A DNA stretch of 64,000 nucleotides from IMG/VR virus record IMGVR_UViG_2718218322_000002. One strand, written 5' to 3'. This document shows, piece after piece, positions 12,001-15,000 of this stretch. The position numbers were made by a program. The stretch is from a virus (Duplodnaviria; Heunggongvirae; Uroviricota; Caudoviricetes). Each line of letters begins with the position of its first letter. Within the stretch, counting starts at the first letter, position 1.

Positions 12001-15000
12001 ACAGCAATATCAGGCCGTGGGTGGAAAAAGCCGCTGAGCAGTGCATACAACAGCGACAGACGGTAGTGATGCTTGTGCCAGAGGATATGTCTGTCGGATG
12101 GTTCAGCAAGGCTCTGGAGAGTGTTGACGAAGTTCGCATCATCACTGATGGACGGATTAATTTTATCGAACCATCGACAGGGCTGGAGAAGAAGGGAAAC
12201 AGCAAAGGCTCAATGTTGCTGATTTGGCGACCGTTCATCAGTCCTCGACGGATGTTTACTACCGTATCCAAAGCGGCATTGATGGCGATCGGGCTGGGCG
12301 TCAGGAGGGCTGCATGAGGCGACAGCGACGAAGTATCACCGACATCATCTGCGAAAACTGCAAATACCTTCCAACGAAACGCTCCAGAAATAAACGCAAG
12401 CCAATCCCAAAAGAATCTGACGTAAAAACCTTCAATTACACGGCTCACCTGTGGGATATCCGGTGGCTAAGACATCGTGCGAGGAAAACAAGGTGATTGA
12501 CGTGATGATTTATTCGGGGCTATATTCCTCACGCGCCAGCAAAATCTGGCGTCGGGATTGGCGTCCTGGATAGAGACCGCGACAGATACACGCCGCGAGC
12601 GTGTTTTTTATTGTCGTATGCACGCGCACATCTGAATTATGGTGGGCTGTGTGGGGGCGGAGAGATCCGCGCCGGTCGGTTTCCCGGTTACGCCAACCCT
12701 GCACAGTTCACCACCAGAAGATTGGCGTCGTCGGTGGTGAGTTATTAAGAAACCACTCGAGGGCGTCATTATGACAACTCAAATCTCTGTTGAAACTCTC
12801 TCCCCGATCACCCATAACCAGATTCCTGTTATTACCACCGAACTTTTGGCGCAGTTGTACGGTGCTGAAGTTAAGAACATTCAAAATAACTACGCCAGAA
12901 ATGCTGAGCGCTTTATTGAAGGAAAGCATTTTTTCAAAGTGGCTGGCGATGCCCTGAAAAATTTGCGGGTAGCTTTAAACTACTCACAAAATTTGCAACC
13001 ATCTTTAAGAGGGTTACAAATTTCCCCGAAAGCCCGCTCCCTCATCCTCTGGACAGAACGAGGCGCAGCCCGTCATGCAAAAATGCTCGAAACCGATCAG
13101 GCGTGGGAGGTGTTCGAAAAACTGGAAGACTGCTATTTCAGCCAGTGCAAGAAAAATACTGGCAAACAAGAGAAGAGCACCAACGAGCTTTCCGCAAAAG
13201 AAGCAAACAGCCTTGTATGGTTATGGGATTATGCTAACCGCTCACAGGCATTATTCCGCGAACTGTATCCGGCGCTAAAACAAATTCAATCGAACTATTC
13301 CGGCAGATGCTACGACTACGGTCATGAGTTTTCGTATGTTATCGGAATGGCGAGAGATGTTTTAATCAACCACACACGAGATGTTGATATTAATGAGCCA
13401 GACGGACCAACGAACCTTTCCGCATGGGTAAGGCTTAAGAACAAAGAGTTGCCGCCTTCACTGCATCGCTACTGACAATTGACAACTTAACAAACCCAGC
13501 TTCGGCTGGGTTTTTTATTACTGAATTTTCAATGTGAGAGGACATGACAATGAATGAGCTGATAAATAGCAGTATCATCAAAATGACAAGCATTGAAATC
13601 GCTGAGTTAGTGGGAAGTCGTCCAGATAACGTAAAAATATCAATAGAGCGCCTGGCTAAATCTGGAGTTATTCAACTTCCTGCATTGCAGGTTTTCGAAA
13701 AAAATCAATAACTTAGGGCTGCGCCGTAGTGTCGAGGCTTACGTCTTCGAAGGCGAACAAGGTAAGCGCGACAGCATTATTGTCGTTGCCCAGTTGTCGC
13801 CGGAATTCACCGCTCGTCTTGTTGACCGTTGGCGAGAACTCGAAGGGGCAACCGCAAAGATCCCACAAACCTTTTCTGAGGCATTGCGCCTTGCAGCTGA
13901 CCTTGAAGACAAGAAGGCTGAACTGGAGAAACAGCTTGCTCTCGCAGCACCTAAAGTTGAGTTTGCCGATCGCGTTGGCGAGGCCAGCGGAATTTTGATT
14001 GGAAACTATGCAAAGGTTGTTGGTATTGGTCCAAACAAACTGTTTGCGTGGATGCGCGATCACAAAATCCTTATTGCTTCAGGTGCCCGGCGCAATGTGC
14101 CAATGCAGGAATATATGGATCGCGGCTATTTCACAGTGAAAGAAACAGCGGTCAATACAAATCACGGAATACAGATATCGTTCACCACAAAAATCACCGG
14201 TCGTGGTCAACAGTGGCTGACAAGAAAGCTGCTAGATAACGGAATGCTTAAAGTAACAGGGGAGGCTGCTTAATGGCTAAACCAGCGCGAAGGAAATGCA
14301 AAATCTGTAAGGAATGGTTTCACCCGGCATTCTCAAATCAGTGGTGGTGCAGCCCGGAACACGGAACTAAATTAGCGCTCGAACGACGAAATAAAGAACG
14401 CGAAAAGGCGGAAAAAACAGCAGAGAAGAAACGACGACGAGAGGAGCAGAAACAGAAAGATAAACTTAAGATTCGAAAACTCGCCTTAAAGCCCCGCAGT
14501 TACTGGATTAAACAAGCCCAACAAGCCGTAAACGCCTTCATCAGAGAAAGAGACCGCGACTTACCATGTATCTCGTGCGGAACGCTCACGTCTGCTCAGT
14601 GGGATGCCGGGCATTACCGGACAACTGCTGCGGCGCCTCAACTCCGATTTGATGAACGCAATATTCACAAGCAATGCGTGGTGTGCAACCAGCACAAAAG
14701 CGGAAATCTCGTTCCGTATCGCGTCGAACTGATTAACCGCATCGGGCAGGAAGCAGTAGACGAAATCGAATCAAACCATAACCGCCATCGCTGGACTGCC
14801 GAAGAGTGCAAGACCATCAAGGCGGAGTATCAACAGAAACTTAAAAAACTGCGAAACTGAACCGCCCCGGTTTTCCTGGAGAGTGTTTTATCTGTGAACT
14901 CAGGCTGCCAGATCATCGTTTCTGATGGAAGCATAATAAGCTTTTTCTGCTTCTGCCGGAGGGATATGACCCAGCCTTCCCAGCAATCGTCGATTGTTAT

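Follow-up and report, generated by a model that had tools for sequence, protein, structure and literature searches.

A P22_AR_C and terminator module shared by two antirepressor genes of one Stx2c prophage

We describe a repeated module in the Stx2c prophage of Escherichia coli O157:H7 strain 1130, which is the 3' part of Ant-type antirepressor genes and comprises the P22_AR_C domain (104 codons) together with its own intrinsic terminator. Very probably, this one prophage carries the shared module on two otherwise unrelated ant genes, with both alleles coming from a common pool. The prophage occupies the whole stretch of DNA that was analysed (the window, 64,000 nucleotides); its toxin is Stx2c (Stx2 A subunit and Stx2c B subunit), and RefSeq entry NZ_CP017434.1 names both genes carrying the module "phage antirepressor Ant". 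The two genes lie in unrelated control cassettes: gene 1, in the nin region, follows an IsrK/C4 RNA leader, whereas gene 2 belongs to a P22 immI arrangement with Arc-family repressors.

A preliminary description had reported a module of about 360 bp present twice in the same orientation, 28 kb apart, at roughly 94 percent identity by eye. Self-BLAST of the window and a global alignment confirmed this pair. Positions 13161-13518 match 41622-41979 on the same strand at 93.04% over 359 columns (E = 5e-150), with 23 mismatches and two one-base gaps; the global alignment has 334 of 359 columns identical (93.0%), and the coding part reaches 94.6%, so that identity is not much lower than the reading by eye. 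The earlier coordinates were nearly exact, being 6 nt off at the start of copy 1 and 1 nt off at that of copy 2. The copies are direct repeats with a start-to-start spacing of 28,461 bp and perfect runs of 60, 44, 32, 29, 27 and 25 nt. Their edges are sharp, because flank identity drops to 15-25%, the random level, within 60-120 nt on both sides. The repeat and its terminators are as follows.

13161-13518, plus strand: repeat copy 1, with 104 codons of P22_AR_C, the stop codon, an 18-nt variable spacer and the terminator (self-BLAST, alignment)
41622-41979, plus strand: repeat copy 2 (self-BLAST, alignment)
13492-13518, plus strand: predicted intrinsic terminator of copy 1, with a 9-bp stem, the loop TTCG and a T-run
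41954-41979, plus strand: predicted intrinsic terminator of copy 2 (terminator scan)

Domain annotation of both proteins revealed that the shared part is exactly Pfam P22_AR_C (PF10548), which scores 103.8 bits in the nin gene, 101 bits in the immI gene and 105.3 bits in the 104-aa module alone (gathering score 22.4 bits). The coding part consists of 104 codons and a stop, and the two proteins differ at only 2 residues within it (D/N, R/H). The terminator that the preliminary description had placed downstream of the module was also recovered: the hairpin CCCAGCTTCGGCTGGG plus T-run was called terminator-like at both copies, and judged from the sequence these hairpins fit intrinsic (Rho-independent) terminators, with a GC-rich hairpin followed by a T-run 3' of the stop codon. 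The hairpin occurs at +22 nt in 77 of 80 related viral loci, in front of at least five different downstream sequences. Homology thus stops directly after the terminator T-run whatever sequence lies downstream, which resembles the conserved "boundary sequences" at module joints of mosaic lambdoid and P22-like phages; in the annotation of CUS-3, the ant-tailspike spacer after ant is boundary sequence bsq1. Unlike those linkers, the shared stretch of the window is mostly coding and contains a whole domain rather than just intergenic DNA. Rfam matches inside the module (rsmX, istR, STnc370) were far below threshold and were dismissed as chance. A PDB sequence search with both Ant proteins found no relative. 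AlphaFold modelled the module as three helices (pLDDT 77.9, from a shallow alignment), and a Foldseek comparison of this model with the PDB yielded no hit at E < 1; therefore no function can be read from the fold.

Gene 1 and its leader comprise the following features.

12497-12526, plus strand: promoter-like site, TTGACG-18-TATATT, 10/12 consensus match, at the expected start of the IsrK-like RNA
12520-12609, plus strand: IsrK-like sRNA (12533-12609) overlapping a c4 a1/b1 target element (12520-12572) (Rfam)
12611-12748, plus strand: upstream ORF of 45 codons in the orf45 position, overlapping the C4-like RNA at 12635-12718 (ORF call)
12771-13475, plus strand: nin-region antirepressor gene, 234 aa, with ORF6N (aa 12-105) and P22_AR_C (aa 134-206) (Pfam, RefSeq)

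Promoters and RNAs at both ant loci are predictions from homology and consensus scans. Upstream of gene 1, the Rfam scores are 75.5 bits for isrK (gathering threshold 50), 50.5 bits for c4-a1b1 (threshold 46.7) and 66.7 bits for the C4-like RNA (threshold 45). The position of the putative promoter, which is proposed from its consensus match only, fits the start of the isrK match at 12533, and the IsrK-like sRNA ends in a terminator hairpin (12588-12604) with a T-run. The 45-codon ORF stops 22 nt upstream of the nin ant start; in IsrK-type control, a small ORF in this place couples its translation to that of the antirepressor gene. The leader of gene 1 is of the Gifsy-1 isrK-orf45-anrP and P1/P7 c4-icd-ant type, with isrK, C4 and a1/b1 elements all above Rfam thresholds. 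Its layout matches that of the Gifsy-1 locus, isrK-orf45-anrP (PMC4825925), with the 45-codon ORF as a candidate counterpart of orf45, and the ORF6N head of nin Ant has 65% identity to AnrP. However, the Gifsy-1 locus lies downstream of Q and gene 1 upstream of Q in the nin region, and AnrP has a different C-terminus and an isrJ sRNA where gene 1 has P22_AR_C and the shared terminator. The homology to AnrP does not extend over the full length: only aa 1-126 of nin Ant, its head half, align, and AnrP lacks P22_AR_C. In sequence, the nin gene is a chimera that joins a head like that of AnrP to a tail like that of P22 Ant; with ORF6N in place of P22_AR_N, it does not have the build of a P22-type Ant. 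A LexA-box-like site, as in Gifsy GfoA/GfhA-type control, was sought in both ant promoter regions and none was found.

The same ninE-ant-roi-ninG position and the same ORF6N plus P22_AR_C build are found in the Stx phages phi24B, VT2-Sakai, 933W-type and Nil2. The nin ant region is 90.3% identical to VT2-Sakai over 2 kb, and positions 12700-13560, which span nin ant, are 100% identical to the ant of phage CP-1639. The nin module allele of the window is 86.6% identical to the Sakai module, as compared with 93% to the immI copy in its own prophage. The roi gene adjoining nin ant is frameshifted in the strain 1130 prophage.

Gene 2 is part of a cassette with the following features.

40326-41979, plus strand: P22 immI-like cassette between tail genes L (ends at 40324) and K (starts at 41991) (comparison with JLK-2012 and CP-1639)
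40341-40661, minus strand: Arc-family repressor gene in the Mnt position, divergent from ant (Pfam Arc, 73 bits; RefSeq)
40769-40942, plus strand: Arc-like repressor gene, co-oriented with and upstream of ant (Pfam Arc, 22.1 bits, cut-off 20.4; RefSeq)
40947-41013, minus strand: candidate sar-like antisense RNA over the arc-ant junction and the ant start codon (14-bp hairpin and T-run)
41013-41936, plus strand: immI antirepressor gene, 307 aa, with P22_AR_N (aa 12-121), a middle segment and P22_AR_C (aa 207-279) (Pfam, RefSeq)

Gene 2 encodes a single protein with the two Pfam halves of P22 Ant (P22_AR_N at 135.8 bits besides P22_AR_C). The order of the genes follows that of P22 immI (mnt, arc, ant, sar): ahead of ant, a predicted Arc-family repressor gene takes the place of mnt on the opposite strand and an Arc-like gene reads in the direction of ant, a terminator follows ant, and a candidate antisense hairpin covers its start. 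The sar match of this candidate RNA lies at the expected place and strand and covers the full model; its score, 29.5 bits (E = 0.002), is below the Rfam gathering threshold of 43. Compared with P22-like genes for 300-aa Ant proteins (such as that of viral locus L042), the module has 93.6% nucleotide and 96% protein identity, whereas identity to the P22-like protein is no more than about 57% in the N-terminal and middle parts of the gene 2 product. Moreover, the cassette lies between the lambda-type tail genes L and K and not, as in P22, upstream of the tailspike gene. Positions 40300-42100, which span immI ant, are 100% identical to phage Stx2a_WGPS8. In phage CP-1639, L directly adjoins K and the cassette is missing. 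The block 40326-41979 is also present, at 98.7% identity, in the nin region of phage JLK-2012 (strain DEC5E), where it sits inside a truncated nin ant, with its left joint at the microhomology GGATTATGC and its right joint within the shared module, followed by roi. By these comparisons, the immI-like cassette moves as one block. A junction of immI ant, module and roi occurs in 3 of 5,426 complete genomes; tandem duplication of a strain 1130-type prophage was considered as its source and rejected, as the relocated cassette of JLK-2012/DEC5E explains the three genomes.

The preliminary description had read the repeat as domain shuffling between antirepressors, and this was borne out. The module occurs in 1,852 copies in 1,117 genomes and in 434 viral stretches. 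Protein homologues of the module gave nothing longer than 182 aa, all of them short or partial, and architectures were surveyed in viral loci instead. In 80 viral loci, chosen for their resemblance to the module, copies that share 95% or more of their protein sequence carry heads from four N-terminal families, namely ORF6N, P22_AR_N, Bro-N and KilA-N; since the loci were selected in this way, the low module diversity in the nin context is partly a sampling effect. All ORF6N-type genes join the module at one and the same codon (gene nt 390/391). The 57 module haplotypes fail the four-gamete test at 365 of 703 informative site pairs (Rm at least 19), some of which could reflect repeated mutation at synonymous sites. 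Shuffling of this domain is strongly supported but already known, and the families concerned have names in Pfam. ORF6N, P22_AR_N, P22_AR_C, Bro-N, KilA-N and ANT have been listed together as a domain-swapping "Bro network" (PMC10111431), and 82% identity over the final 104 residues was reported for phi24B and P22 Ant by Fogg et al. 2011 (PMC3064807). Four heads of the Bro network are found on the module, and the strain 1130 prophage is an instance with two members in one prophage. The repeat represents ordinary phage gene mosaicism and no new element.

Comparison of the two contexts points to movement of module alleles between the nin and immI loci, in one or both directions and once or more often. 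A probe joining the immI ant head, the nin allele of the window and K matched at 99% or more in 39 of 278 complete genomes with the immI-K arrangement; among the matches listed, 30 genomes were at 100%, including EC4115, TW14359, SS17 and E32511. One further viral locus (L010) likewise matches this probe at 99% or more. The nin copy of the window is also 100% identical to the immI module of NE122, whose own nin module is only 86.6% identical to this nin-type allele; intragenomic gene conversion was therefore rejected as the source of the allele in NE122. Among 14 immI cassettes, diversity is 0.5-1.6% upstream of the module versus 5.1% inside it, and in phage 2851, a non-defective relative, the 1,424 bp upstream show 0 differences and the module itself shows 14.

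How the two copies came to lie in one prophage can be read in other ways. Their shared orientation and sharp edges would suit a recent segmental duplication that gave one ant gene a copy of the other's 3' end. However, the coding parts differ by 15 synonymous and 2 non-synonymous changes over 104 codons (dS 0.27, dN/dS 0.03), far from the near-identity at synonymous sites that a recent duplication predicts, each copy is 100% identical to one in another phage or genome, and the same head and module combinations are widespread, which leaves this origin hardly any credibility. By these measures the copies are distinct old alleles, neither recently copied from the other. The low dN/dS and the mere 2 of 104 differing residues could alternatively reflect purifying selection alone, in an old domain that is inherited vertically and is not recombining. 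Against this stand alleles that agree in every nucleotide, down to the non-coding spacer and terminator, between nin and immI contexts, the large fraction of incompatible site pairs, and the ORF6N genes, whose modules are 2% diverged while their head halves differ by 21%; we regard selection alone as very improbable.

A further reading concerns the consequences of the repeat rather than its origin. The preliminary description had pointed out that recombination across it would delete Q, stx2AB, the lysis genes and most head and tail genes. The geometry stands: the interval contains roi, ninG, Q, tRNAs, the toxin genes, lysis, head and tail genes up to L, with the correction that the toxin is Stx2c and not a generic Stx2. 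RecA-mediated exchange needs roughly 25-30 nt of perfect homology, which the three longest perfect runs exceed; in addition, the module recombines in nature and the prophage encodes Bet. However, the junction that a 28-kb deletion would leave, with the nin left arm, the module and the K right arm, was found in none of 5,426 complete E. coli genomes, a junction being counted as present if at least 80% of the chimeric query was covered; the best coverage, 60%, corresponds to one arm only. At least 7 genomes, strain 1130 included, retain both copies at 100% identity to the window, and the IS629 copies in the same prophage (1.3 kb, 99.7% identity) are much better recombination substrates. The 7% divergence and short length of the repeats also predict a low recombination rate. 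RecA may thus be able to delete the 28.5 kb from one copy to the other, and such events should be rare; it is very unlikely that the repeat is an active instability site and an important way of losing Q, stx2c and the lysis, head and tail genes. It is not a demonstrated deletion hotspot, and an instability role for it is unsupported.

We therefore favor a module pool common to many enterobacterial phages, which would supply both alleles. Homologous recombination between different kinds of Ant gene is confined to the 358 bp of the module, because the flanks are unrelated. Recombination within it would swap heads, move alleles between nin and immI, and could carry a whole cassette to a new site. 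The terminator of copy 1 may shield Q and stx2c, and that of copy 2 the tail genes, from transcription that begins at the promoter of the cassette itself, as long as the polymerase is not antiterminated.

Both Ant proteins most likely help to inactivate the CI-type repressor during induction; the prophage repressor gene is at 6648-7343. The helical C-domain would probably serve as a common partner-binding or self-association part, with the variable head giving specificity. In phi24B, the nin ant has a role in efficient induction, as described by Fogg et al.; when ant is knocked out, the late promoter yields after induction about 27-56% of the wild-type output, and the loss is reversed by complementation (PMC3064807). 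AnrP induces Gifsy-1 (PMC4825925), and according to its Pfam content it acts without P22_AR_C. We also considered, as a doubtful proposal, that P22_AR_C and its terminator are a selected "docking" sequence for head swaps and for hops between the early nin and late tail regions, and that the two antirepressors form a two-input trigger. If so, the same effector tail would be placed under independent switches, the IsrK/C4 RNAs and Arc/Mnt/sar, which would govern induction and toxin release.

Taken together, these results leave current understanding unchanged: the domain, its shuffling and both gene types were already described, and loss of stx by this route is unsupported in 5,426 genomes. Antirepressors affect the inducibility of Stx prophages and hence the amount of Shiga toxin. 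Annotation and experimental design are helped by recognizing that this Stx2c prophage holds two Ant-type genes with one tail domain under two control circuits, and that the tail module is the place where Ant genes recombine.

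Self-BLAST aligned positions 13161-13518 with 41622-41979 on the same strand at 93.0% identity over 359 columns (E = 5e-150), and 334/359 columns were identical in a global alignment; the coordinates and the identity of 94% by eye in the preliminary description were thus essentially right. The copies lie 28,461 bp apart (start to start) and share perfect runs of 60, 44, 32, 29, 27 and 25 nt, and their flanks are at the random level of 15-25% identity. In each copy, 104 sense codons and the stop are followed by a variable spacer of 18 nt and then by the hairpin CCCAGCTTCGGCTGGG and its T-run; a scan called this hairpin terminator-like at both places. 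The coding part is the Pfam domain P22_AR_C (PF10548; 101-105 bits against a cut-off of 22.4), carried by two different genes.

Antirepressor genes carrying the module
12771-13475: nin gene, 234 aa, ORF6N + P22_AR_C (Pfam); "phage antirepressor Ant" in RefSeq
41013-41936: immI gene, 307 aa, P22_AR_N + P22_AR_C (Pfam); "phage antirepressor Ant" in RefSeq

Between the copies there are 15 synonymous and 2 non-synonymous differences (dS 0.27, dN 0.008). The dN/dS of 0.03 indicates that both are under strong purifying selection, and the synonymous divergence led us to reject a recent duplication: the copies are old alleles. Identical twins (100%) of the nin and immI regions occur in phage CP-1639 and Stx2a_WGPS8, respectively.

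The domain shuffling proposed in the preliminary description extends well beyond these two genes. Scanning viral contigs with the 104-aa module gave 434 related stretches. We retained the best 80 of the 434 together with flanking sequence; each has ≥95% protein identity to the module. Among these 80, the module occurs in the contexts ninE-ORF6N-module-roi-ninG and L-mnt-arc-P22_AR_N-module-K, in P22-like immI regions and in others, and Pfam searches of representatives found four head families on a near-identical module: ORF6N, P22_AR_N, Bro-N and KilA-N. The junction between ORF6N genes and the other three head types always falls at nt 390/391 of the ORF6N gene, at residues GKQEK. A middle segment is common to the P22_AR_N, Bro-N and KilA-N types. 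In the AlphaFold model of the module, the first 6 residues have pLDDT <50 and the first helix begins at residue 12, suggesting a flexible linker at the head-module junction. The terminator is part of the module, since the hairpin is kept at +22 nt in 77 of the 80 loci and homology ends right after the T-run, followed by at least five different downstream sequences. This four-head shuffling fits the "Bro network" of domain-swapping phage regulators (PMC10111431), and phi24B Ant and P22 Ant have been reported to be 82% identical over their last 104 residues (PMC3064807).

The two genes are embedded in unrelated control cassettes. Upstream of the nin gene, scans and Rfam searches identified a complete RNA leader.

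Elements of the nin leader
12497-12526: promoter-like site (scan), upstream of the nin gene
12520-12572: c4 a1/b1 target element, Rfam 50.5 bits, above gathering score
12533-12609: isrK, Rfam 75.5 bits, above gathering score; match ended by a terminator (scan)
12611-12748: 45-codon ORF, upstream of the nin gene
12635-12718: C4 antisense RNA, Rfam 66.7 bits, above gathering score

The leader (12497-12770) has the same layout as Gifsy-1 isrK-orf45-anrP, and likewise that of the P1 type. In Gifsy-1, translation of orf45 is switched on by the short IsrK RNA; AnrP is translated through coupling to orf45 and induces the prophage (PMC4825925). In the literature searched, we found no discussion of an IsrK/C4-RNA/a1b1/orf45 circuit in Stx2c phages. 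Residues 1-126 of the nin protein are 65% identical to Gifsy-1 AnrP (STM2616), which has ORF6N but not P22_AR_C; the nin gene is thus chimeric, with a head like that of AnrP and a tail like that of P22 Ant. In common Stx2c prophages, the nin region has a tandem pair of ORF6N genes, as in NE122 (locus L087, 8983-10677) and Nil2 (antA/antB), where the C-terminus of the first is without a Pfam match and a further promoter-like site precedes the second; the Nil2 annotation describes the arrangement as disruption by a retrotransposon. The roi-type gene adjoining the nin ant (13550-14273; Rha-like N-terminus and KilAC/ANT domain) is frameshifted in the window and intact in NE122, VT2-Sakai and JLK-2012.

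The second copy closes a cassette inserted between tail genes L and K.

Elements of the immI region
40326-41979: immI cassette, between L and K
40947-41013, minus strand: candidate sar-like antisense RNA, 14-bp hairpin and T-run over the arc-ant junction/ant start

In the cassette, the Mnt position is taken by a divergent Arc-family gene; another gene, Arc-like, is co-oriented with ant (Pfam), and ant with the terminator stands at the end. In CP-1639, L is followed directly by K without the cassette. The hairpin is probably a sar-like antisense RNA, judging from a full-length, sub-threshold Rfam match (29.5 bits, E = 0.002). The Arc-family genes, the candidate antisense RNA and ant are arranged as in P22 immI. 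Neither ant promoter region contains a LexA-box-like site; the only perfect LexA-box match in the window, CTGTATATAAAAACAG (56257-56272), lies far from both ant genes.

Module alleles move between the two locations. The 82 module sequences comprise 57 haplotypes with 84 polymorphic sites; all four gametes occur in 365/703 informative site pairs, and at least 19 recombination events are required. The window's nin allele, spacer and terminator included, is found unchanged over 358 bp in the immI gene of the viral locus L010, whose flanks match the window's immI cassette (99.9% upstream, 99.3% in K). When a chimeric query joining the immI head, the nin allele and K was searched in complete genomes, 39 matched at ≥99%, including EC4115, TW14359, SS17, SS52 and E32511, and all 30 among the matches listed were at 100%; the immI-K arrangement occurs in 278 genomes. 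Phage 2851, which is identical to the window over 1,424 bp upstream, carries a third allele with 14 differences within the module. In pairwise comparisons of 14 immI cassettes, diversity is 0.5-1.6% upstream versus 5.1% in the module. The 15 nin loci differ by 21% in the head half versus 2% in the module, the latter being partly a sampling effect because the loci were picked by module similarity. NE122 also has the window's nin allele in immI, and its own nin gene was ruled out as the source (86.6% identical to that allele).

The cassette itself has also moved. In phage JLK-2012 (strain DEC5E; locus L005, 3573-6408), the whole block corresponding to 40326-41979 lies in the nin region, within a truncated ORF6N ant. 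On the left, the block joins the nin module about 75 nt from the start of the module, at the microhomology GGATTATGC; on the right, the joint falls inside the shared module, with roi following. The relocated cassette (mnt-like, arc, ant) is also present in STEC346 and RM10410, and this joint type occurs in 3 of 5,426 genomes.

The window corresponds to about 1,951,920-2,015,919 of the E. coli O157:H7 strain 1130 record NZ_CP017434.1; 11000-17000 matches at 100%, and on the same offset the window's genes lie at matching positions. The prophage in it is lambdoid and long-tailed, an Stx2c phage of the 2851/1717/WGPS8 kind, and has several insertion sequences.

Insertion sequences in the window
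632-1949: IS629/IS1203, 1.3 kb (self-BLAST), splitting gam
4960-6277: IS629/IS1203, 1.3 kb (self-BLAST), between a hypothetical gene and the repressor gene
14858-16167: IS629/IS1203, 1.3 kb (self-BLAST), inverted, between ninG and the phosphatase gene
43640-45952: ISEc8 (IS66 family), between a tail assembly gene and the J tail-tip gene

ISEc8, the IS629 copies and a frameshifted capsid gene suggest a defective prophage. The portal protein head gene, frameshifted in RefSeq, holds tandem repeats of 162-bp period (32175-32767, 93-97% identical). An Rfam match to the STnc100 sRNA (19293-19504, 154 bits) lies directly downstream of stx2c B, beside an iraM-like gene, and upstream of stx2c the window has two tRNA genes (Ile, Arg; 17653-17885) versus three (Ile, Arg, Arg) in the NE122 prophage.

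The preliminary description also proposed a ~28-kb deletion between the copies. The geometry holds, as they are direct repeats: the segment lost in a crossover would carry roi, ninG, an IS629 copy, the phosphatase gene, Q, two tRNA genes, stx2c A and B, lysis, terminase and head genes, the tail genes as far as L, and the two Arc-family genes, and an in-frame hybrid ant would be left adjoining K. The predicted junction, however, was found in 0 of 5,426 complete E. coli genomes at ≥80% coverage, the best query coverage (60%) being one arm plus the module. Both copies occur at 100% identity to the window in at least seven genomes, strain 1130 included, and are 27,309-27,310 bp apart end to end in six of them. 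Strain 1130 has 1,152 bp more between the copies than these six siblings, a difference consistent with an additional IS copy together with a 162-bp repeat array shorter by one unit. RecA-independent deletion drops steeply with distance, and across 358 bp that are 7% diverged RecA-dependent exchange has a low efficiency and is counteracted by mismatch repair. Far better substrates in this prophage are its three IS629/IS1203 copies, two of which (632-1949 and 4960-6277) are direct repeats at 99.7% identity. The repeat is unlikely to be a meaningful route of stx loss.

Repressor inactivation by P22 Ant is cited in PMC3064807, a study that also found the late-promoter output of a phi24B ant knockout after induction to be lowered to ~27-56% of wild type. 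Both Ant proteins may act on the prophage LexA-family repressor (6648-7343), and the two terminators would shield Q/stx2c and the tail genes from the cassette promoters until N- or Q-modified polymerase passes. The C-domain may be a common partner-binding or self-association part, with the heads providing specificity; the case for such a role is weak, because AnrP works without the domain, a sequence search found no solved relative of either Ant protein, and the three-helix model of the module (pLDDT 77.9, pTM 0.70) had no significant structural match.

Taken together, domain content, the RNA elements upstream of the nin gene, cassette boundaries, and the sharing and mosaicism of module alleles were all computed directly. 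The repeat is real and was correctly seen at the outset; it is textbook phage mosaicism built from catalogued domains, already known and present in many published Stx phages. To this we make modest additions: a single tail module serves two control circuits, alleles are documented to have been exchanged between the nin and immI sites, and one cassette has been relocated.
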